This document shows positions 9,428-59,230 of a stretch of 64,000 bases of DNA, one piece after another (positions within the stretch are counted from its first letter, which is position 1; each line of letters begins with the position of its first letter). The stretch is from Deltaproteobacteria bacterium. GTDB lineage: Bacteria > Desulfobacterota > Syntrophia > Syntrophales > Smithellaceae. A model generated the notes under the pieces. That model ran no database searches and was not told the origin of the DNA. It worked only from the letters and a program-made list of their open reading frames with translations. A program made the translations under genes and the position numbers. The stretch lies in contig JAPLJP010000093.1 in the NCBI GenBank assembly GCA_026388535.1, positions 14,553-78,552 on the forward strand, written 5' to 3'.

Positions 9428-9486
9428 CACGTTATGGAAAAACAATATTTTATCAAATTAAATTTTGGAATTTCTTACTTTTCTTC

Positions 9487-10869
9487 ATGAAAATATTACT
9501 GGTAAATCCCATCACCCGCAATATTTCTTTATCTTCACCTGATCTGGGATTGGGCTATCTGGCCGGAGCCCTGGAAAAAGAAAAGCATCAGGTTGATATA
9601 CTGGATTGTGTAAATCTCAGAATGACGTATAACAAATTTGAAAATTATATTGCCGAAGTTGATTTTGACGTCATCGGTTTCAGAGTGTTTTCCACAGATT
9701 TGTTTTCTGTTAAAAAATCTTTGCAAATAGTCAGAAAGAGGCGTCCGGATGTTAAAATTATTCTCGGTGGAGCTCATCCGTCAGCCTTCCCCGAACAAAC
9801 CCTGCAATATTTTGAAGAAGCCGATTTTGCCATCAGAGGCGAAGCAGAAACAGGGCTGGCTGATTTAATAAGAAATTTACTCAATCCGGATAAAATCCAG
9901 AAAAAGAATATTCCCGGTCTGATCTGGCGAGAAAACGGGGAAATTAAATGCAACGATCCTGTTTTCCCCGAAGATTTGGATTTGCTGGGCTCACCTGACT
10001 GGAATTTAATAAATCCCTGTAATTATCCTTTTCAGACATCTTACCTTACACAATCAAAAATTGTGGCTCCTCTTATTATGACACGAGGCTGTCCTTACCG
10101 GTGCACATTTTGTTCCTGCCGTTCGGTAACCGGACATAAGATAAGATCTCACAGCGTTTCCTATATAATAGAGGAAATAAAATTTCTTAAATCAGAATTC
10201 GGAATAAAAGAGATATGTTTTATTGATGATAATTTTCTTGCTCTCAAACATCTGGCCACCGATTTGTGCGAACAAATGATTAAACAAAAAATTGATGTCC
10301 AGTGGTCCTGTTTTGGCATTCGTCTGGATCTGGTTGATGAAAACATTTTAAGTTTAATGGAAAAATCTGGCTGTTACTTATTGACCGTCGGAATAGAATC
10401 GGGTTCTCAGCGAATTCTCGATCATATGAAAAAAAAATTAACTCTTGATCTAATAAAAGAACAAGTAAACCTTATTAAAACCAAATCCAGCATCAAAGTT
10501 ATCGGCAATTTTATTCTGGGTTATCCAATGGAAACAGAAGATGATATTTACAAAACAATTAAAGTCGCCAGAAACCTGTCCCTCTATGGCGCCAATTTTT
10601 TCCCCTTTCATCCCACGCCCGGCACTGAAATTTTCGACGAATTAATCGCGAAAAAAGAATTAATGGTTATCAATTGGGAAATAATGGGACAAGACCGCAG
10701 GCCTTACATACCACAGGGTATCTCCAAACAAAAATTTACATGGTTATTTTTTCTGGCATTTATAAATTTTTATATGAGGCCAAGAATTATACTGAATGTT
10801 ATTCTGTCAACCAGATCTCTTGAAAGATTAAAATATGTTTTTTACAGAATTTTCAGAATAGTTAAATGA
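9487..10869 (+). CDS. B12-binding-domain radical SAM protein (class B), paralogue 2
   Basis: The protein is 460 aa. It has 'MKILLVNP...', 'ILGGAHPS' and the cluster 'TRGCPYRCTFC'. The C-terminus is hydrophobic: 'FTWLFFLAFINFYMRPRIILNVIL'. Confidence 0.85.
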   Translation: MKILLVNPITRNISLSSPDLGLGYLAGALEKEKHQVDILDCVNLRMTYNKFENYIAEVDFDVIGFRVFSTDLFSVKKSLQIVRKRRPDVKIILGGAHPSAFPEQTLQYFEEADFAIRGEAETGLADLIRNLLNPDKIQKKNIPGLIWRENGEIKCNDPVFPEDLDLLGSPDWNLINPCNYPFQTSYLTQSKIVAPLIMTRGCPYRCTFCSCRSVTGHKIRSHSVSYIIEEIKFLKSEFGIKEICFIDDNFLALKHLATDLCEQMIKQKIDVQWSCFGIRLDLVDENILSLMEKSGCYLLTVGIESGSQRILDHMKKKLTLDLIKEQVNLIKTKSSIKVIGNFILGYPMETEDDIYKTIKVARNLSLYGANFFPFHPTPGTEIFDELIAKKELMVINWEIMGQDRRPYIPQGISKQKFTWLFFLAFINFYMRPRIILNVILSTRSLERLKYVFYRIFRIVK

Positions 10870-10935
10870 TTTCTAGTTATTTATCTGCGGCTTCGGTATA
10901 ATTTTACCAAGGCAACTCAAAATGCCATATATTCC

Positions 10936-10964
10936 TTGACTCTAAAAATCATATTACTTATATT
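10936..10964 (+). promoter_or_regulatory. Candidate sigma70-like promoter for radical SAM paralogue 3
   Basis: TTGACT (10936-10941), a 17-nt spacer and TATATT (10959-10964). Confidence 0.45.
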
Positions 10965-11027
10965 CAAAAACCTGAAAGCAAAGCAATCTTAAACTCTCAC
11001 TATTAAAGTTATCTTTAGATAAATTAT

Positions 11028-12533
11028 ATGAAAATAGCCTTTCTCAACATCGCTCATGAATGTTTGGCGATATCAATATTATCGGCCATCGCCAAAGAAG
11101 AAGGGCACTCCGTAAAACTACTGCATGTCCCAACTCTTTTCAAAGATGGTTTTACCAGAGAATTTAAACGGCTGGCAAGATTATTCAGCAACGACAAACA
11201 AATATTCAAACAACTTGAGGATTATCAACCCGATCTAATCGCTTTTTCCGTAGTGACGTTTCATTATCAGATAGCGCTTCACTACGCTGAAATCTGTAAA
11301 AAGATTTGCCCCAACGCGAAAATTGTTTTCGGAGGCATACATGTTTCTTCTGTTCCCGCAGTAGTTATCGCCAACGAATTCATAGACTATGTGGTTATCG
11401 GAGAAGGAGAAGTTGCCTTCTCCGAAATCATCAAACATGTTGAAAATGGTGATTCCACCGAACCAATAGTAAACACCTGGTATAAAGCCAAAGACAACAC
11501 CATCATTAAAGGAAAACACGCCGGTTTCATCCAAGACCTCGATTCTCTTCCTCATTTTGACAAGGAAATCTGGAAAGAAATCTTTCCTTTAAAAACATAT
11601 TACCTCACCATGGCTTCCCGGGGATGTCCTTACAACTGTTCCTATTGTTTCAATCATTTCTTCAGAGATATTCCCGAAGAAAAATCAAACTATGTACGGA
11701 GAAGAAGTGTCAAACATGTAATAGAAGAATTAACCGCCGCTAAAGAAAAATACAAGATCAGCACGATTGAATTCTGGGATGATATTTTCATTTTTGATAA
11801 AAAGTGGCTGAAAGAATTTCTGGAGGCGTACAAGAAAGAAATTGCTCTTCCCTTCAAATGCTACATTCATGTTAATTTGTTTGATGAAGATACAGCAATG
11901 CAACTGAAAGATGCCGGCTGTAAATGGGTGGATTTTGGAATTCAAAATATTAATGAAGACTATCGTAAGAAATACCTAAAACGCAATGAAACAAACGCCA
12001 ATATAGTAAAGGCTCTACAATTGCTGAAAAAGTATAAAATAGTTTCCTTTGCAGATTATATTGTCGGATTACCGGGGGACACGGCAGATCATTATGAAGA
12101 GGCAAGGGTGTTCTTTATTGAAAACATGCCTGATATCATCGAACCCTACTGGATGTCATATCACCCCCAGACCGAAATCATTGAAAAGGGTTTTGAACAC
12201 AATATTTTAAATGCTGAAAAAATGGATTTAATTAATCATGGCCGTAACCCTCATAGTTATTTTGAAAGTTCCGTGGCGTCCAAAGATTTTCACAGCGAGT
12301 ATTATTTCATCCTTAAAGTTTTCCCCGCTTTACCGGTGTGGTTAAGACATAAGCTTACATACAGCGTTTCCAAAAAATTTCCTTACTTCATAAAACTGCT
12401 CTTTTTTATTTATTCTATCTTTTATCTGGCCTTTAAACATAAAAGCCCTCGGATAAAATATTTCACAGCATATTATATAAAACAAATCATCTGGATAATA
12501 AAATCAAAAATTTTTCCTAAAAAGTATATATAA
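11028..12533 (+). CDS. B12-binding-domain radical SAM protein (class B), paralogue 3
   Basis: The protein is 501 aa. It has 'MKIAFLNI...', 'VFGGIHVS' and the cluster 'SRGCPYNCSYC'. The C-terminus is hydrophobic: 'YFIKLLFFIYSIFYLAFKHK'. Confidence 0.85.
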   Translation: MKIAFLNIAHECLAISILSAIAKEEGHSVKLLHVPTLFKDGFTREFKRLARLFSNDKQIFKQLEDYQPDLIAFSVVTFHYQIALHYAEICKKICPNAKIVFGGIHVSSVPAVVIANEFIDYVVIGEGEVAFSEIIKHVENGDSTEPIVNTWYKAKDNTIIKGKHAGFIQDLDSLPHFDKEIWKEIFPLKTYYLTMASRGCPYNCSYCFNHFFRDIPEEKSNYVRRRSVKHVIEELTAAKEKYKISTIEFWDDIFIFDKKWLKEFLEAYKKEIALPFKCYIHVNLFDEDTAMQLKDAGCKWVDFGIQNINEDYRKKYLKRNETNANIVKALQLLKKYKIVSFADYIVGLPGDTADHYEEARVFFIENMPDIIEPYWMSYHPQTEIIEKGFEHNILNAEKMDLINHGRNPHSYFESSVASKDFHSEYYFILKVFPALPVWLRHKLTYSVSKKFPYFIKLLFFIYSIFYLAFKHKSPRIKYFTAYYIKQIIWIIKSKIFPKKYI

Positions 12534-12646
12534 TAAAATATAATTGGACGGGAAGGGAAATTGAGAACAAATTGTTAAGTAAGTATTTTACGATCAATCA
12601 TCTCGCAAAAGAAGACCAATCGGTTCAAAGCATATAAATTTTTATT

Positions 12647-14197
12647 ATGATCACAAATACAAAGAAAGAAACATTATATTTTATCGTTCCACGGTTTCCC
12701 TATCGCTTTATTACAGATCTCGAGTTCTTGCGAAAGATAACTAACAAAAAAGGATTCTCTTGTCCATTGTCTCTACCCTCCTTAATTAATCTAACCAATG
12801 AAACTAAGTGGAATATTTTGTTTACTGATGAAAACATCAGTAAAATTAATTATAATATTAAACCTTCACTTGTAGTTCTTTCTGCCATGACCTGTTATTT
12901 TGGAAGTGCTATTAAAATTGCACAAATATTTAAACAAAAAGGTATACCCGTGATATGCGGAGGTATTCATGTATCCCTTTATAAGAACATAAAAGATCAT
13001 CCCTTCTCATCAATAGTCATCGGGGAGGGTGAATATATCTGGAGGGAAATACTCAATGATCATCAGAAAGGATCATTAAAGCCAGTCTATAATAATGATC
13101 AGCATTCTCCTTTGATAGATATTAATTATGAAAAGGTTAATAGATATATTGATTTTTCAAAATATTGTTCTTATCCCATACAAACAACACGTGGCTGCCC
13201 TTTTAATTGTAATTTTTGTACAGTTACAGAATTTAATGGAAAAGAGACAAGACACCGTCAAATAGAAAACATTGTTAATGAGATTAAATATGTTCAAAAA
13301 ACAAACCACGAAATTATCTTTGTTGATGACAATATAATTGGTGACAAGAAATTTGCAAAAGATTTATTTGAGGCACTTGCCAAACAAAATATTTTTTGGG
13401 GTTCTCAATCTTCAATAAATATTGCCTTTGAAAAAGACCTTCTTGAATTGGCAGCGCAGGCTGGTTGTGAATATCTTTTTCTTGGTTTTGAATCAACGCA
13501 AAAAGAATCTCTCCAATTATTTAACAAGCAAGTGAATTTATCTGTAAAAGATAAATATAATGAAATTTTTCCCAATATTCGATCTCATGGCATAGAAATA
13601 GTAGCTTCTTTTATTTTAGGAAATGATTCGGATAACGGAGAATCATTTAGGCAGATTATTGATTTTATCGAAGATAACAATATTATTTACGCAATGGTAA
13701 ATATTTTAACTCCGCTACCGGGGACAGAACTGTTTAATACAATGGATAAAGCATCCCGCATTATTGATTATAATTTCACCCACTATGATGCACAACATGC
13801 TGTTTTTTCTCCAGCACAAATGAGTGCTTCTGATTTGGAAAAAGGATTATGTTTAATCTATAAAGATATCTACAATCTCAATGCACTATTCAGGCGAACC
13901 AAGGCTACTCTTTGTGAATACAAATTTTTTAACAAACGTAATTCTTCCAAATTTAACATAAGCTTTTTTCAAATAATTACCTATTTAAGGTTCATTTTAA
14001 GATTCATCTACCAGTTATTCCTTACTAATTCTCTTCATGTTTTAATTGACAGACTAATCTTTGTTTTTAGAATGTTCTTTCTTCTTTTTGATAATAAAGT
14101 CCGAGAGAAAAAGAATATTTTTTATTACCTTATTTTATGCATAAACTTGAACGATTTTTCCCGTGATACAATAAAACAGATTCAGAAAAGATATTAA
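12647..14197 (+). CDS. B12-binding-domain radical SAM protein (class B), paralogue 4
   Basis: The protein is 516 aa. It has 'VICGGIHVS' and the cluster 'TRGCPFNCNFC'. The C-terminus is hydrophobic: 'FFQIITYLRFILRFIYQLFL...LIFVFRMFFLLF'. Confidence 0.85.
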   Translation: MITNTKKETLYFIVPRFPYRFITDLEFLRKITNKKGFSCPLSLPSLINLTNETKWNILFTDENISKINYNIKPSLVVLSAMTCYFGSAIKIAQIFKQKGIPVICGGIHVSLYKNIKDHPFSSIVIGEGEYIWREILNDHQKGSLKPVYNNDQHSPLIDINYEKVNRYIDFSKYCSYPIQTTRGCPFNCNFCTVTEFNGKETRHRQIENIVNEIKYVQKTNHEIIFVDDNIIGDKKFAKDLFEALAKQNIFWGSQSSINIAFEKDLLELAAQAGCEYLFLGFESTQKESLQLFNKQVNLSVKDKYNEIFPNIRSHGIEIVASFILGNDSDNGESFRQIIDFIEDNNIIYAMVNILTPLPGTELFNTMDKASRIIDYNFTHYDAQHAVFSPAQMSASDLEKGLCLIYKDIYNLNALFRRTKATLCEYKFFNKRNSSKFNISFFQIITYLRFILRFIYQLFLTNSLHVLIDRLIFVFRMFFLLFDNKVREKKNIFYYLILCINLNDFSRDTIKQIQKRY

Positions 14198-14280: not shown

Positions 14281-14356
<76 letters not shown>

Positions 14357-15830: not shown

Positions 15831-16102
15831 TTCGGCACTTTGCAAAATGAGTTATTTTATATCAAAAGCACAGACATTTTAATTGTCAACGCGCTTTTTT
15901 GTACCACTGGGAAACATAATCGTTTATTTGGTTGAAAATAAAATTAATCGAATAAATTTTATTATAATATTATCTGCATTTTTTATTATCTCGTCATTGA
16001 GATTAGCAATAATTTTAAAAAAGCATTATCATTACTTACGAAATTTGATTTGATTTTTACCAGACGGAAAAGCTCACAAGTGTTTCAGCCGAAAGGATAG
16101 TG

Positions 16103-17311
16103 ATGAAGAGTAAGATTTTTATTAAATTATTGTCGTTGGTCTTTTTAATATGTATTTTATTTGTAACACCACTTATGGCACAAGAACCAATCAGGGGAAT
16201 GCAGCTTGCTTTAAGGGGAATAAATGCTGATGATGCGGAAGTGGCAATTGATGATCCATCACCTAAAAATACTCAGTCGGCAGCGAAAGAACTGAAGAAG
16301 GATGACTCACCTAAGAATCCCCAGCAGGAAACGAAAGATCTGAAGCAAGATGGCTCACCAAAAAGCCTTGAGCAGGAAGTAAAGGAGTTAAAACAGGAAG
16401 TTCAAAGAATACGCAGTGAAAATGAAGCCAGAAAGAAACTGGAAATACCGGAAGAAGAAAAGAGTAAATCCGTAGAGGATATTCTTTCCGCCGTAGGACG
16501 TGAATATAGCCTTTTAAAAAAGGGAACCATCGGTCTTTCCTATACTCTCGGTTACTCATATTTTTCCGGAGATGCCATCTCCGACACCACACTAGTTGAA
16601 AAAAGATCAAATCACAACATCGTCAATATAATTACCGCTGAATACGCACTGTTCAATAACTTAACTATCGGCACAGGAATTCCTTTTGCCTATAAATACA
16701 ACAGAGTGGGTACATCATCTTCTCAAGAGGCAACCGATCTGGGAGATGTATCTTTAAGCTTATCATTGCAACCATTCAAATCAGGAGGAAAAATCCCCAC
16801 AACTATATTAAGCTTCGGTGCTTCCCTGCCCACAGGAACCAGTCCATACAGGGTTGATCTGAAAAACTCATTGCCGACTGGCTCAGGTCTTTACTCATTC
16901 AGCGGCGGTGTATCTCTTAGCAAGGTTTTGGATCCCCTGGTTGCTTTCGGAAGCCTGAACTACTCATACAGCCTCCCCGAAGAGGGTCTCTCTCAGAGAT
17001 GGGGGACAAAAGAAGTCCTTACAAAAGTTGATCCCGGCAGCAGCCTGGGGTTGGCGCTTGGTTTTGGTTACGCTTTGTCTTATCAGGCGTCTCTTAACTT
17101 AGGCGTTTCGTTCGGTTACTCTTTCGGCAGTAACTATATTATTAATAATATCACTGAATATAAATCAGGCAGTTCTGTTTCTTCTTCTTTTAATGTGGGC
17201 ACGGGATGGAGAATAAGCCCGACGCGATCCATATATGCGGGGCTTGCCATAGGACTGACAAATAGTGATGCTGACTTCTCATTTTCTGTCAGGTTGCCGT
17301 TTGAATTTTAA
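16103..17311 (+). CDS. Outer-membrane beta-barrel protein (putative) with a lysine-rich repeat/coiled-coil N-terminal region
   Basis: It has a signal peptide (KIFIKLLSLVFLICILFVTPLMAQE), three 16-aa repeats and then alternating-hydrophobic beta-strand-like sequence. It ends in ...RLPFEF, with the C-terminal Phe typical of OMP beta-signals. ATG 16103 is preceded by AAGGA. Confidence 0.55.
   Translation: MKSKIFIKLLSLVFLICILFVTPLMAQEPIRGMQLALRGINADDAEVAIDDPSPKNTQSAAKELKKDDSPKNPQQETKDLKQDGSPKSLEQEVKELKQEVQRIRSENEARKKLEIPEEEKSKSVEDILSAVGREYSLLKKGTIGLSYTLGYSYFSGDAISDTTLVEKRSNHNIVNIITAEYALFNNLTIGTGIPFAYKYNRVGTSSSQEATDLGDVSLSLSLQPFKSGGKIPTTILSFGASLPTGTSPYRVDLKNSLPTGSGLYSFSGGVSLSKVLDPLVAFGSLNYSYSLPEEGLSQRWGTKEVLTKVDPGSSLGLALGFGYALSYQASLNLGVSFGYSFGSNYIINNITEYKSGSSVSSSFNVGTGWRISPTRSIYAGLAIGLTNSDADFSFSVRLPFEF
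16253..16396 (+). repeat. 3 x 48-nt imperfect in-frame tandem repeat inside the OMP gene
   Basis: The units are DPSPKNTQSAAKELKK, DDSPKNPQQETKDLKQ and DGSPKSLEQEVKELKQ, at 16253-16300, 16301-16348 and 16349-16396. Confidence 0.8.
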
Positions 17312-17532
17312 GAAAATTTTTCAAAACGAGCAGAAGATAAGTGCCTTGGATAATGATTATGTAGCCGCTTTTAAATAAAATAAATAGTTGAAATTAGGAA
17401 AACAAAAAGATATACAAAATTAAATATTTAATTTTCTTTGTTTTCTTTTCTCGTACCAATGGGAATGAGAAGTTGTTCGTTAAAGCGAGAAAAATTTGTT
17501 TTTCTAATAAAACAATGGGGGAGCAGTAATTA

Positions 17533-19413
17533 ATGATAAGAATTTTAAAGTTCATAATGCTTATTTCCCGTCTGCCGTTATCGTTATTTTTCTCTTTCCA
17601 GGTTAAAAGACATAAGTTAAATAAATTATCCCGTTTGCAGACAATACTATACGTTACGTGCTTAGTCGCAGCCGCAGGCCTTTTTATCAAGCTACCGCAG
17701 GCACAAGCCGCGTTCGCGGAGCAGATTGCCATTGATCCCAGGGCCATTTCCCTTGCCAACACTGTTACCGCCGATCCTCCGGGCATCTCGTCCATTCATT
17801 ATAATCCTGCGGGGCTTTCAGATTTGGGTGATGGAAATCTTATCAGTATGGGAGCTATACCCGCATCCTTAAACATAACCACAAAATTTGAAGCTGATCC
17901 TAGCGTAGAACCATTTCATGATTTTAAGGGAGATTTAGTCATTGACCAGATTGCTGGCACCAAGTCAACCAACGCTTCCGGCAGGATGTACATCCCCCTC
18001 CTGGACATTACTGTAGATGCGATGGCTGGCCCCGTCTTCGGTGTCTCTCATCGGAATCCCGGTTCAAAATGGACCTTCGCCTACAGCGCTTATGCCCCGT
18101 ATGCCGGCGGCTGGGAATCTGGGAATAATTCTCCTGCACGGTATGAAGGACAGTCGGTAACTTTGCAGCATCTTATCTACGCCGGTCCGGCAATAAGTTA
18201 CAAGATAAACAATAATCTCTCTATCGGTGGTTCATTCGGTTTGGGTCAATCTGTAATGAATGTCAACATGGAAATGAGGTCGCCAAACGAATTAACAAAT
18301 ATAACAAAAATTCTCGGAGACGCTACCCATGATATGGCAAACCCCATATTCGACGTTACTATACCCTTTCCCCTGTTCGGCGGTGGAATAGGCCCCTATG
18401 ATTCGGTAGGAAACTTGTCCTTTAGCGCACGCGATGATTTTGCACCTTCTTATAATTTAGGCGTGCTGTGGGAACCTTTGGACTGGCTTTCCTTCGGAGC
18501 AGTTTACCAGAGCTCGACCAAAGCTCATTTAAGCGGAAAATATAAATTTAAGTACAATGATAACTGGCAGAGAATGGTTGCCTGGGAAGGAAGCACCGCT
18601 ATTATGCAGATTGTTTCCATGATATTTGATCTACCTTATGAAGTTACTTCAGAACAGACCGGATACGTTACCAGGGATGTGGAATGGCCGCAAATGGCCA
18701 GTGTAGGAATCAAGCTCAAACCGGTCAAACGGCTATCTCTTCTGGCCGACCTGCATTGGGCGCAATGGTCGTCTATTAAGCAGGACAATTTCGTCTTTGA
18801 TCAAAAAATTCAACTCCTCCAGGTATTAAAGTTTATGGGCTATAATGGCGGCGCCTATAATATGATCCTGGTTCGTAATCTCAAGGATACTTTGAACTGG
18901 TCAGTAGGCATCGAGTATCAGGCGCTGGACTGGCTATCGCTTCGCGCCGGCTACGAGAATAGAACCGCCTCTACGCGCGATGAATATTACGATGCGCTTT
19001 ACGCTATCCCCTCATTGGATTATTTCGGCGCAGGATTGGGAATCAAGTGGAAAAGCATAGATATCGATCTGGCATTAGGTTACATGGTCAACAAATCGTA
19101 CAAAGTTCCTGACAACGGCAGCGTCAATATGAACTCCACTCAGCTCGGCAGTGGACTTAACAACCCTTACAGAGGACTCAATTACGAGCAGGAAACAGCC
19201 ATCTACATGGGAGGTTTAAAAGCAACCATGCCTCTGGATATCATTACCGGCATGCTTTATAAGGGGATTGATTTGGTGAATCCCTTCAAACGGTCTGCCT
19301 CTAAAGGAAGTTTGAAAGCCGCCGGAATAGAGAAGCCTGTTGATTCGTCCGCGACTATTATAAATAATCTGCGGTATGAAGGGAACTATTATTACACGGA
19401 AGATATCGAGTAA
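17533..19413 (+). CDS. Outer-membrane transport protein, FadL/OMPP1/TodX-like
   Basis: The protein is 626 aa. A signal-peptide-like 'CLVAAAGLFIKLPQAQA/AF' is followed by 'IDPRAISLANTVTADPPGISSIHYNPAGLS', which resembles the FadL-family N-terminal hatch motif (...NPAG/A.L). The rest has beta-barrel-type composition. The start codon is uncertain. Confidence 0.55.
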   Translation: MIRILKFIMLISRLPLSLFFSFQVKRHKLNKLSRLQTILYVTCLVAAAGLFIKLPQAQAAFAEQIAIDPRAISLANTVTADPPGISSIHYNPAGLSDLGDGNLISMGAIPASLNITTKFEADPSVEPFHDFKGDLVIDQIAGTKSTNASGRMYIPLLDITVDAMAGPVFGVSHRNPGSKWTFAYSAYAPYAGGWESGNNSPARYEGQSVTLQHLIYAGPAISYKINNNLSIGGSFGLGQSVMNVNMEMRSPNELTNITKILGDATHDMANPIFDVTIPFPLFGGGIGPYDSVGNLSFSARDDFAPSYNLGVLWEPLDWLSFGAVYQSSTKAHLSGKYKFKYNDNWQRMVAWEGSTAIMQIVSMIFDLPYEVTSEQTGYVTRDVEWPQMASVGIKLKPVKRLSLLADLHWAQWSSIKQDNFVFDQKIQLLQVLKFMGYNGGAYNMILVRNLKDTLNWSVGIEYQALDWLSLRAGYENRTASTRDEYYDALYAIPSLDYFGAGLGIKWKSIDIDLALGYMVNKSYKVPDNGSVNMNSTQLGSGLNNPYRGLNYEQETAIYMGGLKATMPLDIITGMLYKGIDLVNPFKRSASKGSLKAAGIEKPVDSSATIINNLRYEGNYYYTEDIE

Positions 19414-19446: not shown

Positions 19447-19495
19447 AGCATTACCTGCTTGGAAAATCTACCTATGAGCGGGTAATGCTTTTTTA
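19447..19495 (+). terminator. Rho-independent terminator candidate for the FadL-like gene
   Basis: The stem is AGCATTACC (19447-19455) paired with GGTAATGCT (19481-19489), followed by a T-run. The 3' arm overlaps the last codons of the convergent minus-strand gene. Confidence 0.45.
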
Positions 19496-21333
19496 TTAGC
19501 AATCTGAAGTTCAATTTCTTTCTGGCGTATATCATCTTCCATTACCCACAAATGCTCCGTTTTGGGCTTGTAATAATCACCCACGTTCTTTTTATATATA
19601 TCGTAAATGACGCGGCTGGCCTGCGGATTTAAATTAACATATAAACTAAAAACATTAAGAAGAACCTCTGGATTTTTTTCATCTTTGAATCGCATTGGGC
19701 CAAGATCAACCATTCGAACTTCCGGCGGAACTTGAGGAAGAAGTGACGGATGAATCAGGATGGCAGCATTTCTTTCAAAATACAAAAGTCTCCATCCGGC
19801 TTTTAGAAAATCAAAAATTAAAGGAAGTTCCCTGTAATGCATTATCGCTACCTTGAAAGGATACTTTTGAGTAAAACGCTGAATGTCTTCCGTGGTCACA
19901 GATTTGCTGGTAAATTCCCAATAGTCAGGGGCTACCTGTTTACTAAACGGCACAAGTCGGGGATCAATAAAAACCTTGTAATCCGGATAAAGAGCCCAAA
20001 ACAGGTAGCCGCCGATAACATAGTCGTTAAAGATCGGGCCTTCCAGCCGGTATTTCTTCAAGAAGGATACTTCTTTCACCGGCACGAAACTTTCGAGGCC
20101 GGCGCCAAACCATTTGTTGGCCGTGCCGTATTTAAAGGTGAAATAGGGGATGTTGATAAAAAAGAAAATGAAAACGAGCAAAGACAAGATGGTTGCCCTG
20201 CCGGGGATGTTCTTCAATTTCAGACGGTGGAGCAGGTAGAAGAATGAGAAAAAAAAGGCAAAGTAAAAAGTGTAACTTGCTCTAACTGCACTCATGCCTC
20301 CCCAGAATGTGACAACATTGACGATCAGCCCTGTGAAGTCGCAGGTTTTCTTTTTGATTAATTCATAGATGAAAAGGCAGCAAAAGAAAAACATCATTAT
20401 GACCATAATCCAGGCATTTTGGCCCACCCTGAAAAAGGAAACATTGATATCCTTTAAGTGTGGCCAAAGGCTCTCATACGCCAGTATATTTATGCTGTTT
20501 AAGTTATAGGACGCAGAAGTCGTAACTCCATTATAAATGCTCAGCAGATAATTTATGCCATAAGGATTCAGTAGGGTTGCTGCCAAAGAAAGAAAGAAAG
20601 CAGCCCCCAGATGGGTCAGCTCTCTGCTAGTAAAGGATTCTTTGGAAAAGAAAATTCTGTTCAAAAGCTCACCGACGAAAGCGAAAGATAGAAAAATGAA
20701 ACCTAAAACGAAAGAGCCGTGCAGATTTACCCAGAGAGCGAAAATAAATGGATAGAGATAAAAAAGGAACTTCCTGCGGGTCAACTTAACACAAAAAAAG
20801 ATAAATACCGTCCAGCAAAATAGAAGGGTTGAAAACAATTCCGGCTTATAGTAACTGCAGACCATGGAACCGGCAATGCCAATCGCGGCAATGAGAGTGA
20901 CGTTGGTTATATCTAACCGCTGGCGGATCAGACGGAGAAAGAGATAAAAGGAAAGAAAAATCCCCAGGAATATGAGCCACTGAAAGATCCACAGGCCAAA
21001 CCCGCCCAGCAGGCTGTAAATAAGGTAAAGAATGATGCTTCCAAGAAAGGTATTATAAATCCAGCCAGAATCTGCCGGCGTCCAGGAAAAAATTGAATGA
21101 TCGACAACAAAAGTGTGATGAGTCAAATAATACTTGCCGAGCGCCATCTGCCACCATAAATCATAATCCAAACGATCCACGGGATATCTCAAAAGCATAA
21201 TGACCGGCAGAAGCGCAATTATCAACCATTTCAGATAACGGCAGGAAGCTAATTTTTCCGAAAAGGCGAAAAAAGATGAAATTATTAACATGGTCACCAA
21301 CTGAATGGTTATTTGTGGTTGTGTTTTTTTCAT
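19468..21333 (-). CDS. Large polytopic membrane protein, putative GT-C-type glycosyltransferase/polymerase (paralogue A)
   Basis: The protein is 621 aa with about 12 TM helices and a ~200-aa C-terminal soluble domain. The first loop carries 'YPVDRLDYDLWW', an acidic DxD-like motif as in GT-C enzymes. It is paralogous to 22296..24194. Confidence 0.45.
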   Translation of the reverse strand: MKKTQPQITIQLVTMLIISSFFAFSEKLASCRYLKWLIIALLPVIMLLRYPVDRLDYDLWWQMALGKYYLTHHTFVVDHSIFSWTPADSGWIYNTFLGSIILYLIYSLLGGFGLWIFQWLIFLGIFLSFYLFLRLIRQRLDITNVTLIAAIGIAGSMVCSYYKPELFSTLLFCWTVFIFFCVKLTRRKFLFYLYPFIFALWVNLHGSFVLGFIFLSFAFVGELLNRIFFSKESFTSRELTHLGAAFFLSLAATLLNPYGINYLLSIYNGVTTSASYNLNSINILAYESLWPHLKDINVSFFRVGQNAWIMVIMMFFFCCLFIYELIKKKTCDFTGLIVNVVTFWGGMSAVRASYTFYFAFFFSFFYLLHRLKLKNIPGRATILSLLVFIFFFINIPYFTFKYGTANKWFGAGLESFVPVKEVSFLKKYRLEGPIFNDYVIGGYLFWALYPDYKVFIDPRLVPFSKQVAPDYWEFTSKSVTTEDIQRFTQKYPFKVAIMHYRELPLIFDFLKAGWRLLYFERNAAILIHPSLLPQVPPEVRMVDLGPMRFKDEKNPEVLLNVFSLYVNLNPQASRVIYDIYKKNVGDYYKPKTEHLWVMEDDIRQKEIELQIANKKALPAHR

Positions 21334-53349: not shown

Positions 53350-54123
53350 TTATTTTCTTGCTTTGTAGTACTGAAATTCGCCGGGTATATCAACCAACTG
53401 TTTGAACTCCCGATCGGAGGCGGCCATCATCTCGTTGAACCAGTTGGGGGAAATAATTTCCCTGGCGGCGTCCTCGTCAATAAAATTAAGGTCTTCCGTT
53501 TTGAGGCGCAGTTTGCTCAACACAGGGAGATTATCTTCTCTGGAAACCATGAATGCAACCTTTTCGTACCAGATGTCGCCGAAATCATTCAACGGGAAAC
53601 TGATATCACCACGCCACGGATCGGTCAAAACAACATGTCCTTTGTAAATTCCCCTGAAAACGACAAAATGCCGGTATTCAAATATTTTTATCGGTATGAT
53701 ACAGGGAGCCTTCAGTTCTGATAAGTCATTCAAATCAAGCTTGAAGCCGTCCGCCTTGTAACCGAGCGCGGTGACGAATTTCTTCATATCCAGCAGGGAA
53801 AAGGCCTGGCGTTTTTCTATTTGTGCGGGATCGCCATAATGCAGAAGCCCGTAAATAACCTGTTTTTCGGTGAATTTCTCCCCCAGATAAAAATTGAGAA
53901 GAATAGCGAGAGCGGCGGAACCGCAGGAAAAGTCATAGTTCTGCTTTATCAAATGATCCTTGTTGATTTCCGAAACAGGATTTACGTGAACGCGGATATG
54001 CCCTGGTCCCGGACCGGGAACGGCCAGGTTAATCTCCGGTTTCGGCTGATCCAGAAGAGGAAAAAAATCGGAGGTGAAAGAAACGAGAACAGCGAATATT
54101 CCTGCTATTATCAACGCTCCCAT
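53350..54123 (-). CDS. Stand-alone, membrane-anchored C39-like cysteine peptidase domain protein
   Basis: The protein is 257 aa. It has an N-terminal TM 'ALIIAGIFAVLVSF'. Candidate catalytic residues are Cys in 'NYDFSCGSAALAILLN', His in 'YRHFVVFRG' and Asp in 'LTDPW', in C39 order and spacing. There is no ABC-transporter domain. A strong RBS (AGGAGG) precedes ATG 54123. Confidence 0.65.
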   Translation of the reverse strand: MGALIIAGIFAVLVSFTSDFFPLLDQPKPEINLAVPGPGPGHIRVHVNPVSEINKDHLIKQNYDFSCGSAALAILLNFYLGEKFTEKQVIYGLLHYGDPAQIEKRQAFSLLDMKKFVTALGYKADGFKLDLNDLSELKAPCIIPIKIFEYRHFVVFRGIYKGHVVLTDPWRGDISFPLNDFGDIWYEKVAFMVSREDNLPVLSKLRLKTEDLNFIDEDAAREIISPNWFNEMMAASDREFKQLVDIPGEFQYYKARK

Positions 54124-54285
54124 GAGAGAGCCACCTCCTGTTATTTCAGCCGGTTTAAAGGTTAATTTACCGGCGCGATTTTTGGCTTTATAGTTGTCGA
54201 GGAAAATTTATTATAAAGCTTATAAACAAACAGCCTGTTTGTCAGGCCGTTTTTATATTTATCCGAATAATGGCGCCCTAATTAA

Positions 54286-55242
54286 TTATAGGTGTTTCAG
54301 GGTTATTTCCTGTCTGTAGAAAATAACATTATCGAGACATATCGGCCCCCAGCTCCGCCCCGATTCCAACTGCATGCTTCTGACCTTTATGGTTGTCATC
54401 ATGGGAAGCTTTAACCTTAACACATTCGCGGTCGCACTTCTGCCGATATCAACGTTAGCTATGGTTGCTATTGAACCTCTGATGTCGCCGTTTTGCCAGT
54501 AGGTTGTAAAGGAGGATCCGCCTATATTCATGTTTCCGTTTGGAACCCATGTTGTCCAATCTTCACTAGCATTGTATGTGCCGGGGGTGGCGGCATAAAT
54601 ATAAAGGCCTTGTACATCAAAACTTCTCGGAGTGTCCCTATAGGTTAATTGAATCCTGCCTGTATAACCTCCCTGCGTCATATAACCTTCAAGACCTGAT
54701 CCGCCGCTGGACTGGGACAACTGCATCCACAGGGGGGTGGTCGTGTAATTGTGAGTCGTTCCCGCGATGGTAACGTCACGTCCCATATAAAGACCATTGA
54801 CTGTGAGATTGCCCAAAGTGCGTGAGTTGCCGCCGGCGACGACATTAACGTTGACTGCCGAGAGGTTGATTCCATTGGATGCGGTTGAGGGCAGGGCGAT
54901 TCCGTTCATAAAGAGCCATGTTTTTGTCCCGCTGGAACCGACATCAAGCAGAAGATTGGTGGAAATGCCAAATTTGCCGGCCGCGCTGTCTCCATTAATG
55001 GTCAGAAGAGGAAGATTAATGGCGTTTGTCCCGGCACCCGTAAGAGACGCTACGGTGACATTGGCATTGGCGCTCAGACCAAGACTTATGGTTATTCCGG
55101 CCTGGCCTTCGATTTTCGAAAGTTCGTCTTCGTCTATCGCCTTCATCTTCGCATATACGGAGGGATCGTACACGGAAGGAGCGAAAAGCAGAAGCAAAAT
55201 CACTATAAAAGTGACGACTCTCATGAAGTTAAAATTAAGCAC
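54286..55242 (-). CDS. Secreted beta-rich protein, family member 4 (318 aa)
   Basis: A signal peptide is followed by 'KMKAIDEDELSKIEGQAGITISL' and 'LLDVGSSGTKTW'. The composition is rich in G, S, T, N, A and V. The GTG start at 55242 is preceded by AGAAGG. Confidence 0.6.
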   Translation of the reverse strand: MLNFNFMRVVTFIVILLLLFAPSVYDPSVYAKMKAIDEDELSKIEGQAGITISLGLSANANVTVASLTGAGTNAINLPLLTINGDSAAGKFGISTNLLLDVGSSGTKTWLFMNGIALPSTASNGINLSAVNVNVVAGGNSRTLGNLTVNGLYMGRDVTIAGTTHNYTTTPLWMQLSQSSGGSGLEGYMTQGGYTGRIQLTYRDTPRSFDVQGLYIYAATPGTYNASEDWTTWVPNGNMNIGGSSFTTYWQNGDIRGSIATIANVDIGRSATANVLRLKLPMMTTIKVRSMQLESGRSWGPICLDNVIFYRQEITLKHL

Positions 55243-55280
55243 AAAATTACCTTCTCTTTTTATTCACTTCAATGCCCCAA

Positions 55281-55760
55281 TTAATGGGCGAAAACCTGGA
55301 CAGTACCTGTTACGGATGTGGTAAATTTCTCCATACTAATGCCCATCATGTTGGTGGTGGTGGACAGAGCGGCGGTGCTATCAAGCCTTAGATTGGCGGT
55401 GATATTGCACGGTCCAAGGGTCAGAGTCGGCATAACCATATTTATTCTTGTCGCGGTACCACTGCTTCCGACATCAACAATGGCGTCGCCGCTTATCACT
55501 AATGTATTTCCGCCGTTTATGACGACATTGTTCGCTCCGAAATAGCCGGGGGAAGCAAAGTCCGTAAAGCCGTCGGAATCGCCGAAGGCCATGGTTGCCA
55601 TAGTAGTAGTGCCTACCGTGAAATTACTGAAATTGATGCTCACGCCCGCTTGACCAGTCACATTATCCAGATCACCGTCGGTAATGGCGTGTTTGGCAAA
55701 CGCGGAAACAGGCATCATCATAAATATTGCTGCAATTGCCAGTAATAATATTTTTTTCAT
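55281..55760 (-). CDS. Secreted beta-rich protein, family member 3 (159 aa)
   Basis: The signal peptide is MKKILLLAIAAIFMMMPVSAFA. It is followed by 'KHAITDGDLDNVTGQAGVSINF', 'FGDSDGFTD' and 'VDVGSSGTATR'. The protein ends ...VQVFAH. Confidence 0.65.
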   Translation of the reverse strand: MKKILLLAIAAIFMMMPVSAFAKHAITDGDLDNVTGQAGVSINFSNFTVGTTTMATMAFGDSDGFTDFASPGYFGANNVVINGGNTLVISGDAIVDVGSSGTATRINMVMPTLTLGPCNITANLRLDSTAALSTTTNMMGISMEKFTTSVTGTVQVFAH

Positions 55761-55840
55761 TATTTTCCCTCTTCAAATTTTATCTATTCAGGGTAAGGCC
55801 ATTTGCTTTCAACTTCTTTTAACCTAATTTACCGCCCGCA

Positions 55841-55867
55841 GTCATTTCGAGCGAAAGCGAGAAATCC
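55841..55867. repeat. Short hairpin repeat (GTCATTTCGAGCGAAAGCGAGAAATCC type)
   Basis: The stem is ATTTCGAGCG?/CGAGAAAT-like: TCATTTCGAGCG-aaa-GCGAGAAATCC. It is an AT-variant of the hairpin at 36437. Confidence 0.55.
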
Positions 55868-55973
55868 TTGAACTCCGTGCTTTCCGGCTCTTTTAATATT
55901 CCCCCTACCGGTAAACCGGTATTCGGAATGATAATTTTAAAACTCTTTAAACTTTTAATCCGGGTGTGAAAAA

Positions 55974-56007
55974 GGGGCACGGGCAAGCGGTTGTCCGTGC
56001 CTCTTTT
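55974..56007 (-). terminator. Rho-independent terminator candidate after the 56054..56533 gene
   Basis: The minus strand reads GAGGCACGG-acaaccgcttgc-CCGTGCCCC followed by TTTTT. The stem has one mismatch. Confidence 0.5.
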
Positions 56008-56053
56008 CACGTTTTCACAACGGCTGAAACAAACGCCGTTTTGCTCTCAAGTA

Positions 56054-56533
56054 TTAATGAGCGTGAATAATCAGCGTACCCTTGGGGGTTAAGGAAACGC
56101 CTGACATAAAAGACGTGCCCAATATTCCAGCGCTGGCTAAATTATCAGACTGAGACAGCTTGAGTACCTGCGTCATAGACCCGGCGAGAGCAATTGTGGG
56201 CAGACCGATTCCGATAGCGGTTACTGTACCAGAAGAACCGACATCAATTGTCAGGTCACCGGAAATAGTAACAAAATTAGTTGTCGAGTCGATGGTAGCA
56301 CCAACCCAACCGGCGGCGGTGTAACCTGCTGTACCTGTAAAGCCGTCAGAGTCGCCCCAGGACTGAGCATCAATCTTAACAGCTCCTAAACTAAATTGAT
56401 CGAAATTAATCGTTACGCCTACCTGGGCAGTGATGCCCGCCATTTCGCTTTCGGAAATAGGTGCCTTGGCAAATGAGGTAAAAGGTAACATTACAAAAGC
56501 CGCTAATACTGCAAACAATAAAACTTTCTTCAT
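56054..56533 (-). CDS. Secreted beta-rich protein, family member 2 (159 aa; candidate major subunit)
   Basis: The signal peptide is MKKVLLFAVLAAFVMLPFTSFA. It is followed by 'KAPISESEMAGITAQVGVTINF', 'WGDSDGFTG' and 'IDVGSSGTVTA'. The protein ends ...LIIHAH. It has a strong RBS (AGGAGGAGAG) and terminator-like hairpins on both sides. Confidence 0.65.
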   Translation of the reverse strand: MKKVLLFAVLAAFVMLPFTSFAKAPISESEMAGITAQVGVTINFDQFSLGAVKIDAQSWGDSDGFTGTAGYTAAGWVGATIDSTTNFVTISGDLTIDVGSSGTVTAIGIGLPTIALAGSMTQVLKLSQSDNLASAGILGTSFMSGVSLTPKGTLIIHAH

Positions 56534-56716
56534 CTTCTCTCCTCCTAAAAAAAATTTGTTTTTGTTGTTATGCCGGTGAAATAACCTTCGCCTTCAGACT
56601 TGCGCGGGCCAACCGCTTTTTCTTCTCCCGCCAAGTCGTCGCGCCTGTTTGTTCTCCAGCGGGTTAAATACTTCTGCTTCTTAACTAAACCAAACTTAAC
56701 TTCTTCTGCTATTTAT

Positions 56717-56745
56717 AAAACCGCTCTTTAGTCTCCGGCGGTTTT
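56717..56745 (-). terminator. Terminator candidate after the 56768..57520 gene
   Basis: The minus strand reads AAAACCGC-cggagactaaaga-GCGGTTTT followed by a T/A-rich tract. Confidence 0.4.
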
Positions 56746-56767
56746 ATCGCCTTATTGCCAGCTAACT

Positions 56768-57520
56768 CTAAGTCGCCGAATAATTGGGAATCTTGTTGAA
56801 GATTCCACGAAGACCGGTTGACGAATGATAGCTGTATTTTGACGCAAACACGAAGGTAAGTATTTCGTCGCTAAAATCAATCGTCCTTACGCCGGCGGCC
56901 GTCTGTCTTAACAACACGCCGCCATTTTGCCCCGTGCCCGCGGAAGCAAACATTCCGTTCATCGTTAATATAGATCCCGTAATCTGACCCGTCGCATGAG
57001 CCGTTCCGAGTTCAATGTAATTGAGCACACGATTGGTATTACTAGTTATATTGTCAAAGCCAAACTCCAGAAAAACTCCATTCCAGGCAAGAGGGGTGGC
57101 AGGAATGCCGCTCGTGTAATCGTTACCACCCCAGAAGTAATTTACAACATCCATATCCCAGCCGTCAGAATCCATCCCTATCCCTGTCGCACCGTTGTCG
57201 TAATAGCCCATTTTAAAACTCTCTACATGAGCGTTCATTACCAGATTGACGCCCAGATCCAGGCGAATAACATTAGGACTGCCGCCTCTGCAAGAAGTAC
57301 CAGGACAGCCTGCTGTGCCATCGAGCTCCGTTAAGGTAAAAAACGACTGGGCGCTAACTTCGGAGAGTTCTTGATCGGATAAAACTTTAGCGGGAAGTTT
57401 CGTCGGCGCCGAAACGGATGCGGGCAAAACAAGAAAAACGGCCGCAACGGCCAACAGAACGAGAATGATTTTATGGGGAAAGAAAAACTTCGCTCTTGTC
57501 TGCTTACAGTTTATTAGCAT
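56768..57520 (-). CDS. Secreted protein, family member 1 (250 aa, divergent)
   Basis: It has an N-terminal TM/signal 'IILVLLAVAAVFLVLPASVSA' and then 'KVLSDQELSEVSAQS', which matches the shared N-terminal motif. It lacks the DVGSSGT motif. It has a Cys pair 'GCPGTSC'. Confidence 0.55.
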   Translation of the reverse strand: MLINCKQTRAKFFFPHKIILVLLAVAAVFLVLPASVSAPTKLPAKVLSDQELSEVSAQSFFTLTELDGTAGCPGTSCRGGSPNVIRLDLGVNLVMNAHVESFKMGYYDNGATGIGMDSDGWDMDVVNYFWGGNDYTSGIPATPLAWNGVFLEFGFDNITSNTNRVLNYIELGTAHATGQITGSILTMNGMFASAGTGQNGGVLLRQTAAGVRTIDFSDEILTFVFASKYSYHSSTGLRGIFNKIPNYSAT

Positions 57521-57696: not shown

Positions 57697-58563
57697 TTAA
57701 GTTCCAGCAACAGGAGGCTCTTGCCGATTATATCCGCGGTAAAAGATAGTCAGCAAAACACCGCCAAAACCAACTGTGATGACAACGGCCTTGATAAACA
57801 TGCCGAAGTAAAACGGCAACCAGCCGATAATCCACCACAAAATCAAACCAAGCAGAGTTTCACGAATGAGTGATTGCTTATGATGGCGAAAAGTTTTTGT
57901 CAAGATAAATTTTCCCAAAAGAGCGCTAACGGCAATAAAGCCGAACATAAACGCCAGTAATATAAAGAGAAACGCCAACGGAATCAGAGCAATACCGATA
58001 AAGGAAAATATCAGCAGCATAAAAAAAGGGACGGTCATCACGGTGGCTGCGGCGCCCCCAAAAAATGATTTGAATTTGTTTTCCCGGATACAATCCGCGA
58101 CTTTGTTCAGGGGACGGGGAAATAAAAAAACCATCAGCATCGCCAGCGCGGCGAGCATAAGGAAAAAACAGAAGGAAATGATATCAGCGAGCCACGACCA
58201 TTCATCGTTTTCCTCGTAAAAAGCGGAAGAAAGGGCGGCAAAAATATTCGATGAGTTGACTTCGGTTACCCGCCCGTAAATCTGTGCGCCGTTTCCCTGA
58301 ACCACAACGCCGCCTATACAGAAAATATTACCGCGGACAACTGCCGTGTTTGTCAGCACAACCGAACCGCCTACCGTCACGAGATTTTTTTCGACAAGAC
58401 CGCTGACTGTTATCTGGCCGTCTATGACAAAGGCGTTATCCGCCCTCTGCTCCTCGCCAATGTCAATATCTCTGCCGATTCTGACGATATTCTGCGCGTA
58501 AATATCAGACGCCGCGAAAAGCAGCGCCAGCAAAACAATGAAGGCGATAAATTTATTTCTCAT
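57697..58563 (-). CDS. Membrane protein with an N-terminal bactofilin-like (polymer-forming beta-helix repeat) region and C-terminal TM bundle
   Basis: The start is ATG 58563 (MRNKFIAFIVLLALLFAASDIYAQ, signal-like). 'FVIDGQITVSGLVEKNLVTVGGSVVLTNTAVVRGNIFCIGGVVVQGNGAQIYGRV' has the V/I-x-G periodicity of bactofilin/DUF583 repeats. It is followed by about 5 TM helices. Confidence 0.45.
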   Translation of the reverse strand: MRNKFIAFIVLLALLFAASDIYAQNIVRIGRDIDIGEEQRADNAFVIDGQITVSGLVEKNLVTVGGSVVLTNTAVVRGNIFCIGGVVVQGNGAQIYGRVTEVNSSNIFAALSSAFYEENDEWSWLADIISFCFFLMLAALAMLMVFLFPRPLNKVADCIRENKFKSFFGGAAATVMTVPFFMLLIFSFIGIALIPLAFLFILLAFMFGFIAVSALLGKFILTKTFRHHKQSLIRETLLGLILWWIIGWLPFYFGMFIKAVVITVGFGGVLLTIFYRGYNRQEPPVAGT

Positions 58564-58570
58564 GCTTCTC

Positions 58571-59230
58571 TCATTTTCGGATTTTCTCTCTGGAGGCAAT
58601 TAGCTTCTGCCGCCCGTATTCAACAACTCCCGGCATGACGGAAATAATAACAATAGCAATAATTACAATGGTAAAGTTGTTTTTAACGGAAGGTATGTTG
58701 CCGAAAAAATAACCGCCCAGAAGAAAAAGGAAAACCCACGCGATGCCGCCGGTAATATTATATAAAATAAATCTCGAATAACTCATCGCGCCCACGCCGG
58801 CCACGAAAGGGGCGAAAGTGCGGATAATGGGCATGAAGCGGGCGATAATAATTGTTTTGCCGCCATGCTTTTCGTAAAACTGATGCGTTTTTATCAGATA
58901 TTCCTTTTTGAAAAAGCGGCCGTCTTCATAATGAAATACTTTCGGCCCGATATAATGGCCGATAGCGTAATTGACGGAATCCCCGCCAACGGCGGCAAGG
59001 CAAAGCAGAATCAATAAGATCTCGATATTTAAAGCCCCCTGAGCGGCAAATGCTCCCAGGGCGAATAATAGCGAATCTCCGGGCAGAATGGGCGTAACCA
59101 CGAGGCCGGTTTCACAAAAGATAACCAGAAACACTATAACATACGCCCATACACCACAACTCTGGATAATCAGCGGCAAATATTTGTCCAGATGAACAAA
59201 AAAATCTACAAAATAAATGATAAAGTCCAT
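58571..59230 (-). CDS. dedA: DedA-family membrane protein
   Basis: From ATG 59230 the reading is 'MDFIIYFVDFFVHLDKYLPLIIQSCGVWAYVIVFLVIFCETGLVVTPILPGDSLLFALGAFAA'. As I remember it, this is near-collinear with the E. coli DedA N-terminus (MDLIYFLIDFILHID...FCETGLVVTPFLPGDSLLF). Confidence 0.8.
   Translation of the reverse strand: MDFIIYFVDFFVHLDKYLPLIIQSCGVWAYVIVFLVIFCETGLVVTPILPGDSLLFALGAFAAQGALNIEILLILLCLAAVGGDSVNYAIGHYIGPKVFHYEDGRFFKKEYLIKTHQFYEKHGGKTIIIARFMPIIRTFAPFVAGVGAMSYSRFILYNITGGIAWVFLFLLGGYFFGNIPSVKNNFTIVIIAIVIISVMPGVVEYGRQKLIASREKIRK

Follow-up and report, generated by a model that had tools for sequence, protein, structure and literature searches.

A putative Fil-type, Fap-related export system for leader-bearing, beta-rich proteins in a Smithella-like deltaproteobacterium

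Introduction

Functional amyloid has a well-studied model in the Fap system, and the Fil fimbriae and the protein FilF have repeatedly been proposed as vaccine antigens of Acinetobacter baumannii. Here we describe a distant relative of the Fil system in a 64-kb stretch of DNA (the window) from an anaerobic, Smithella-like deltaproteobacterium, centred on a cluster of five genes (53350-57520) that encode four secreted, beta-rich proteins (P1-P4) and a stand-alone cysteine peptidase of family C39. Acinetobacter sp. Tol 5 makes its Fil fimbriae, which are long, curved fibres, on triacylglycerol, and Edman degradation served to identify their FilA band (PMC3498257); the fimbriae and FilA of this strain have also been reported elsewhere (PMC11784438). 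Within the Fap system, FapD is a periplasmic protein whose Cys is needed for secretion and whose substrate is stated to be unknown, and FapE is the sole Fap protein for which mass spectrometry gave no N-terminal peptides (PMC5557850, PMC6173800). The C39 peptidases ComA, LahT and PCAT1 recognise hydrophobic residues at positions -12, -7 and -4 on an amphipathic helix, together with a small residue at -2 (reviewed in PMC10885120).

An original prediction for this locus had proposed a candidate undescribed system of surface fibres, possibly similar to functional amyloids. Because NCBIfam names FilA to FilF (FilA-FilD as a 'putative pilus system', with homologues of FilB-FilD and a probable one of FilA here) and Pfam has a family DUF6160, the system is not undescribed; it is a distant variant of a known yet mechanistically uncharacterised kind, that of Fil. 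Our literature search found no mechanistic paper for DUF6160 or for FilA/FilB, and none that links Fil with Fap or describes the leader reported below.

Results

The five open reading frames (ORFs) of the cluster all run in the same direction, on the minus strand, and have the lengths originally predicted: P1 (57520-56768; 250 amino acids, aa), P2 (56533-56054; 159 aa), P3 (55760-55281; 159 aa), P4 (55242-54286; 318 aa) and the membrane-anchored peptidase (54123-53350; 257 aa). Behind their Sec signals, P1-P4 carry the shared motifs that had been quoted for them, namely LSDQELSEVSAQ in P1 (residues 47-58; 57347..57382), ISESEMAGITAQ in P2 (residues 26-37; 56423..56458), ITDGDLDNVTGQ in P3 (residues 26-37; 55650..55685) and IDEDELSKIEGQ in P4 (residues 36-47; 55102..55137), all on the minus strand and here numbered -12 to -1. 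The consensus of 176 unique sequences of this kind is [IML](-12)-S-D(-10)-x-[ED](-8)-[LM](-7)-x-x-[IV](-4)-T-[GA](-2)-Q(-1)-[AESG](+1)-G(+2)-[VIF]-[ST]-I, with I/M/L/V at -12 in 96%, L/M at -7 in 100%, I/V/L/M at -4 in 98% and Gly or Ala at -2 in 100% of them. The motif thereby matches the double-glycine leader in register, and by its residue pattern it is a double-glycine-type leader, which is the recognition element expected for a C39 peptidase. The invariant Gly or Ala at -2 would fit a papain-like enzyme in which the S2 pocket dominates specificity, as we infer. Canonical leaders have Gly, Ala or Ser at -1 and form the very N-terminus of a cytoplasmic precursor, and the motif differs from them in both respects. 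All four proteins of the window, and 69% of the 176 leaders, have Gln at -1; the remaining leaders have E, R, T, A or G (Gly/Ala in about 5%). A strongly hydrophobic segment precedes the motif in 98% of the sequences. Because a small-x-small site for signal peptidase lies 3-4 residues ahead of -12 (in 139 of 173 sequences), cleavage there would yield a propeptide of about 15-16 residues, as long as a minimal double-glycine leader. The predicted scissile bonds are Q37|V38 in P2 and Q37|A38 in P3, and in a leader-bearing peptide with G36 and Q37, KHAITDGDLDNVTGQAGVSINF, the cut is likewise predicted after Q37.

The peptidase matches Pfam Peptidase_C39 (8.4e-18), and its best NCBIfam match is pilus_FilB (7.3e-49), followed by C39_FapD (1.7e-30, 106 bits against a cut-off of 330). 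It is a homologue and not an equivalog of FilB, because its 167 bits fall under the curated cut-off of 475; tblastn with A. baumannii FilB against the window gave 41% identity. What had been proposed as an analogy with FapD is thus real homology, and a FapF homologue is also present in the window (see below). The catalytic Cys, His and Asp named in the original prediction are in place: in an alignment of 64 homologues Q61, C67, H152 and D168 are invariant (codons of C67 at 53923-53925, of H152 at 53668-53670 and of D168 at 53620-53622, minus strand). In the AlphaFold2 (AF2) model the core has a predicted local distance difference test score (pLDDT) above 85, and the model superposes on the leader peptidase domains of ComA (3K8U), LahT (6MPZ) and PCAT1 with a target-normalised template modelling (TM) score of about 0.8 and a root-mean-square deviation of 2.1-2.4 A. 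A search of the PDB with the sequence profile found LahT (5e-12) and also PCAT1. The protein thus combines the features by which MEROPS defines C39, a papain-like fold with a Gln oxyanion residue, Cys, His and Asp. Beyond the C39 domain, residues ~205-257 (53350-53510) form a conserved C-terminal extension, L207xxxD211L212xxI215D216E217, which A. baumannii FilB carries as well (LLALKDADMRHVEDA). A role of this tail as a pseudo-substrate, considered on account of its leader-like hydrophobic spacing, is not supported, as the leader profile scored no better on it than on reversed decoys and had its best matches off the tail.

The original prediction saw no FapF-like channel, which is true of the cluster itself but not of the window, where two outer-membrane barrels are encoded at 16100-19413, 35 kb from the cluster and on the opposite strand. 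They were found by tblastn of C39-adjacent proteins from relatives against the window. The first (16100..17311, plus strand; 403 aa) is FilC/FapF-like, and the second (17533..19413, plus strand; a 626-aa ORF whose true start is probably further downstream) is FilD-like, of the FadL/OmpP1/TodX family; they are 57% and 49% identical, respectively, to the corresponding C39-adjacent proteins of Geomonas. The FilC-like protein matches NCBIfam FilC (3.7e-54; 184 bits, cut-off 630) and FapF (3.1e-24; 85 bits, cut-off 700), belongs to the Pfam family Phenol_MetA_deg and matches the sequence of the FapF crystal structure (PDB 5O67) at 2.6e-16. It consists of a signal peptide, a coiled-coil-like segment rich in K, E and Q, and a beta-barrel ending in Phe (...RLPFEF), which is the layout of FapF (PMC5557850). 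The FilD-like protein matches NCBIfam FilD (5.5e-102; 342 bits, cut-off 970) and Pfam Toluene_X (5e-49), and weakly PorV/PorQ (4.7e-11). In tblastn against the window, A. baumannii FilC and FilD gave 32% and 34% identity, whereas FilE and FilF had no match in the 64 kb (E <= 0.05) and none among the proteins scanned with NCBIfam.

The cargo proteins had been described as four paralogues, which holds for P2, P3 and P4 and not for P1. P2 and P3 are 37% identical (E 7e-32), and P4 is weakly similar to P3 (2e-5) and further tied to both through DUF6160 (PF19657; gathering threshold 27 bits), the model of which covers the signal, the leader and the first strands. P2 (28.2 bits), P3 (35.7) and P4 (31.3) all score above the threshold, as does A. 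baumannii FilA itself (37.2); the original prediction's tentative mention of DUF families with a similar motif was correct, the family being DUF6160. The sequence DVGSSGT is present in P2, P3 and P4, and (W/F)GDSDGFT and a C-terminal AH (...IIHAH in P2) in both 159-aa proteins, as had been noticed. P3 and P4 share with FilA the DUF6160 region, the leader and a C-terminal His; they match the NCBIfam model pilus_FilA weakly (P3 3.8e-6, 26.5 bits against a cut-off of 220; P4 1.3e-4), and tblastn with A. baumannii FilA gave no match in the window. P1 matches neither DUF6160 nor any other Pfam family and is for this reason not a DUF6160 member; its similarity to the other three is confined to the signal peptide and the motif, and its body has no BLAST link to theirs. 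Remote homology between these bodies was rejected as well (hhalign probability 0.1% without the leader, under that of the reversed control).

When the leader and the next eight residues were removed, the bodies fell into family A, with 139 members including P2, P3 and P4, and family B, with 41 members including P1 and with the core MGYYDNG...GW..D; the two families have no BLAST link and an hhalign probability of 0.1%. Longer family-A proteins are tandem duplications of a module of ~135 residues ending in (F/Y)AH. P4 appears to contain two copies of it; P2 and P3 each consist of one module of ~120 residues, in which Q/N-rich imperfect repeats are absent. Few proteins belong to family B: among 1.84 billion searched, 47 representative clusters matched at E <= 1e-3. 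Its distant members retain the leader, one of them with a true GG (LSDAELTEISGG|SI). In P0275, a 431-aa protein from the representative search, a DUF6160/FilA-type and a P1-type module are fused behind a single leader, which suggests that both body families act in the same structure. Judged from these sequences, the leader is a portable tag on unrelated cargo bodies, viz. those of family A, family B and the A-B fusion. In the AF2 model (from 42 sequences; pLDDT 77.7; predicted TM score, pTM, 0.46), P3 folds as an all-beta domain whose strands are long, and residues 28-32, inside the leader, form a short helix. A Foldseek search of the PDB found no known pilin, adhesin or S-layer fold for P3, giving no match at E <= 0.001 and Der p 7 as its best (E 0.027, TM ~0.3).

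Scanning one genome per species gave 433 loci that encode relatives of the peptidase, the best 80 of which are all from Desulfobacterota. Profiles for the leader, C39, FilC, FilD and a PD40 propeller were mapped on 86 sources (the window and 85 relatives). The leader profile found 192 ORFs, 154 of them within 4 kb of a C39 gene, and had no matches in reversed decoys; where at least 4 kb was available on both sides, 49 of 53 loci carried at least one leader ORF, and the four matches in the window are the cluster genes P1-P4. In these loci the association of motif-bearing proteins with stand-alone C39 genes, which the original prediction had named as a check, is conserved. The usual order is a family-B leader protein, always as the first gene of the cluster, then one to four family-A proteins, sometimes a PD40 gene, C39, FilC and FilD, and some loci continue with a PD40 propeller and one more small leader protein. 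Genes for C39, FilC and FilD are contiguous, with filC and filD directly after C39, in 47 of the 66 loci with at least 3 kb downstream (43 by automatic count and four with overlapping ORF starts). In Geomonas and in a Desulfatitalea metagenome-assembled genome, e.g., a Phenol_MetA_deg-type and then a Toluene_X-type outer-membrane gene directly follow C39. The 19 exceptions have the split arrangement and all belong to the Smithella clade, the window's own. In Smithella the gene order agrees with that of the window, in that DedA and DUF8173 are followed by genes for three leader proteins and by C39, with purQ and purL next on the opposite strand. Since the genes are contiguous in other genomes, partnership of the cluster with the distant FilC-like and FilD-like genes is likely. 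As a separate observation, most relatives outside the Smithella clade encode a periplasmic, TolB-like PD40 beta-propeller of 500-540 aa beside C39 (6464-7981 in locus L003, 11761-13305 in L004, and 29 others); no homologue of it was found in the window.

Leaders of the same kind also occur in the described systems. FilA of A. baumannii (fil operon in source L086) reads ...SANAMA-MQS-MDDAALSAATGQ-DGINI... and ends in ...ITISGH; after removal of the leader its predicted N-terminus would be DGINIGIALG.... In the fap operon of Aeromonas caviae, a FapE-like protein (NCBIfam FapE 2.3e-12, under the curated cut-off) reads ...APE-LADGELAHLRGR-YVS, and proteins in the position of FapE beside FapD/FapF-like genes carry ITDYELATMRGG-IRL in Polymorphobacter and LSNSSLEEYRGG-FQI on a Vibrio plasmid, both with a true GG. 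On a plasmid of Acinetobacter sp. SAAs474 (L091, 7346-8643), a stand-alone C39 gene adjoins the genes of two small, glycine-rich peptides that have a Sec signal and, behind it, a GA-type leader (LSRQEMKDTQGA); here the same two-step processing may serve a bacteriocin-like purpose. Three sources labelled as plasmids in PLSDB (L086, L090 and L092; NZ_CP104448.1, NZ_AP026896.1 and NZ_CP119142.1) are 2-5 Mb long, carry chromosomal fil/fap operons and are evidently mislabelled chromosomes.

Several further features of the window concern the cluster or its surroundings. About 50 nt past the stop codon of P2, at approximately 55969..56003 (minus strand), lies a strong, GC-rich, terminator-like hairpin followed by UUUUU. 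It was overlooked by the consensus terminator scan, and the consensus scan of the cluster for promoters and terminators gave counts not above those of shuffles. Because the hairpin comes after P2, it suggests that P2 is the candidate major, most abundantly made subunit, and it may set the subunit ratio. Directly upstream of the cluster, a gene for a 300-aa DUF8173-like membrane protein (57697-58599, minus strand), with a weak bactofilin-like N-terminal region and 4-5 transmembrane helices, keeps this position in 11 loci of the Smithella clade and is absent in other lineages; it may be an accessory part or plain conserved synteny, and its membership of the system is uncertain. The window is 100% identical to a metagenome-assembled genome of a 'Deltaproteobacteria bacterium' (locus tags NTW65_*), and its nearest relatives are Smithella and Syntrophaceae. 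The sole Rfam match at the gathering threshold in the window is a tRNA gene (14284-14356, minus strand). Upstream of the barrel pair, four tandem genes encode B12-binding radical SAM enzymes (7895-14197, plus strand; 468, 460, 501 and 516 aa). Convergent with the FilD-like gene lies the gene for a 621-aa polytopic membrane protein (19468-21333, minus strand), which by eye resembles large glycosyltransferase-type membrane proteins, has no match in Pfam or NCBIfam and looks unrelated to the system.

Discussion

From these matches we regard it as essentially certain that the system is homologous to the machinery of Fil and Fap, and the two machines are homologous to each other. Like Fil (filABCDEF; NCBIfam pilus_FilA to FilF), the locus encodes a DUF6160-type subunit in which the same leader follows a Sec signal and the C-terminus is (A/G)H, along with a stand-alone C39 peptidase (FilB), a FapF-like barrel (FilC) and a FadL-family barrel (FilD), and the order subunits, C39, FilC, FilD is the same in most of the Desulfobacterota relatives. 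It differs from Fil in lacking FilE and FilF within the 64 kb, in having several subunit paralogues plus an unrelated leader-bearing protein of family B, in being split where Fil forms a contiguous operon (many relatives add a PD40 gene), and in its host, which belongs to a different phylum. The system of the window is a distant relative of Fil, because all scores are far under the curated cut-offs of NCBIfam. With Fap (fapABCDEF) it has in common a periplasmic-type C39 peptidase homologous to FapD, an outer-membrane protein that joins a FapF-type barrel to a charged N-terminal segment resembling a coiled coil, and the kind of leader seen in the FapE-like protein of Aeromonas and in the FapE-position proteins; however, it has no homologues of FapA, FapB or FapC and no amyloid repeats, it possesses an additional FadL-type barrel, and its subunit bodies are unrelated. 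The peptidase has the same fold (TM 0.8) and Q/C/H/D set as ComA, LahT and PCAT1, which represent the PCAT/AMS peptidases, and the substrates agree in register (hydrophobic -12, -7 and -4, acidic -8, Gly/Ala at -2). In contrast to these enzymes, it is not fused to an ABC transporter and is most likely periplasmic, its leader stands behind a cleavable Sec signal and has mostly Gln at -1, and its cargo consists of folded proteins of 120-270 residues instead of a peptide. The type IX secretion system (T9SS) offers a functional analogy only: PorV is, like the FilD-like protein with its weak PorV/PorQ match, a FadL-family barrel tied to protein export and not to lipid uptake, but no other T9SS component is present, and the cargo signal is N-terminal here, whereas it is a C-terminal domain in T9SS.

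Taken as a whole, the gene set probably encodes a Fil-type, Fap-related envelope system that exports beta-rich subunits and assembles them into surface fibres. P1-P4 would cross the inner membrane by Sec, and signal peptidase I would cleave 3-4 residues ahead of the 12-residue motif, leaving a propeptide of ~15 residues that would serve as a double-glycine-type leader. The C39 peptidase would sit in the inner membrane by its anchor, expose its domain to the periplasm, bind the amphipathic leader and cleave after -1, so that the new N-terminus would be the conserved x-G-[VI]-[ST]-I. Loss of the leader would then license passage through the FilC-like (FapF-like) and FilD-like (FadL/PorV-like) outer-membrane pair, and the subunits would assemble into a fibre on the cell surface, with P2 and P3 as the bulk and P1 and P4 as minor or specialised components. 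What the sequences show directly are the homologies, the linkage of the genes, the make-up of the motif and an intact catalytic centre; among the predicted parts of the pathway, periplasmic removal of the leader by the C39 enzyme is likely. The exact scissile bond, predicted after -1 (e.g., Q37|A38 in P3), is the least certain point. The reading with the best support is a surface-fibre role, already foreseen in the original prediction, since FilA, the subunit of the Fil fimbriae, is in the same family as P2-P4; that fibres are formed in this organism we infer with somewhat more caution and consider reasonably probable.

Several points weigh against this pathway. Leader cleavage is unobserved for any member of the family, and no fibre has been seen in any Desulfobacterota. 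Because -1 is mostly Gln, where canonical leaders have Gly, Ala or Ser, either the S1 pocket must be different or the cut may fall elsewhere, e.g., after the conserved Gly at +2. The N-terminal helix of the peptidase lacks a clear positive-inside signal, and its periplasmic location is suggested by homology to FapD. FilE and FilF are without a homologue in the window, and the outer-membrane genes are unlinked to the cluster in this genome, their partnership with it being drawn from other genomes. The model of P3, finally, has only moderate global confidence by its pTM and resembles no solved pilin.

The Gln at -1 also bears on a different use of the motif, as an uncleaved targeting or docking signal: the C39 domain or the FilC/FilD barrels would bind the leader, keep the subunits unfolded and deliver them, in the way of the non-catalytic C39-like domains of HlyB-type transporters. 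Gln is not a canonical cleavage-site residue, the conservation of residues +1 to +5 means that the element extends past a simple leader, C39-like domains that only bind their substrate are known (PMC5557850), and 3ZUA is among the fold matches of the peptidase. We nevertheless consider uncleaved docking unlikely, as the catalytic residues Q61, C67, H152 and D168 are invariant, the Cys of FapD is needed for secretion (PMC5557850) and some members of the family have a true GG or GA at -2/-1.

Somewhat less likely again is the capture or uptake of hydrophobic substrates: lipids or hydrocarbons, once bound to the secreted, beta-rich proteins, would be passed to outer-membrane channels of FadL type and COG4313 type. 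The pair of barrels does fall into families of uptake channels for hydrophobic compounds (Toluene_X, Phenol_MetA_deg), and many of the host taxa degrade fatty acids or alkanes, but the list of taxa mostly mirrors phylogenetic closeness to the query, and FapF, the closest characterised relative of the FilC-like protein, exports protein (PMC5557850). Likewise, the sole weak fold matches of P3 are the lipid-binding folds of Der p 7 and JHBP, which are not significant (E 0.03, TM ~0.3), and Acinetobacter sp. Tol 5 forms its Fil fimbriae on triacylglycerol, although the FilA of these cells was identified as a fimbrial band (PMC3498257).

Functional amyloid, i.e., polymerisation of P1-P4 as Fap-like subunits into extracellular cross-beta fibrils, had been part of the original prediction, and it is improbable here. 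FapD and FapF homologues are present and the subunits are all-beta and rich in Gly, Ser, Thr, Asn, Ala and Val; against this, P1-P4 have no NCBIfam match to FapB, FapC or FapE at E <= 1, and tblastn with Aeromonas FapB, FapC and FapE against the window gave none, which bears out the original remark that the subunits look unrelated to FapB and FapC. P2 and P3 are, moreover, single modules without FapB/FapC-type repeats, and AF2 predicts that P3 folds into an all-beta domain (pLDDT 78). Release into the medium as toxins, bacteriocin-like antimicrobials or signalling proteins is very improbable, for while double-glycine leaders are typical of bacteriocins and quorum peptides (PMC10885120) and the small peptides of the Acinetobacter plasmid show Sec signals and GA-type leaders next to a stand-alone C39 gene, the mature proteins here have 120-270 residues and are homologues of a fimbrial subunit, neither an immunity gene nor an ABC transporter is present, and the cluster keeps a syntenic chromosomal position throughout the Smithella clade.

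A broader proposal extends the Fil-type, Fap-related pathway beyond this locus: the substrates of periplasmic, stand-alone C39 peptidases of the FapD/FilB family may generally be tagged by a Sec signal and, behind it, a double-glycine-like propeptide, whose removal would gate export through the FapF-type barrel. We hold this tentatively and rate it somewhat short of probable. If it is true, one widespread pathway from Sec through C39 to the barrel would unite the Fap amyloid, the Fil fimbriae of Acinetobacter and the systems of Desulfobacterota, and the long-sought substrate of FapD would be the leader of FapE.

Conclusions

The combination of a Sec signal and a double-glycine-like leader as a possible mark of FapD/FilB-type substrates appears to be new. 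For Fap as for Fil, it is stated that neither the role nor the substrate of the essential C39 peptidase is known, and the leader offers a precise and testable answer, as it comprises 12 residues in a defined register with a predicted scissile bond. The prediction can be compared with the published Edman sequence of FilA, which reportedly appeared in Hori et al. 2011. The family also reaches anaerobic syntrophs such as Smithella, in which surface fibres could matter for aggregation with partner organisms.

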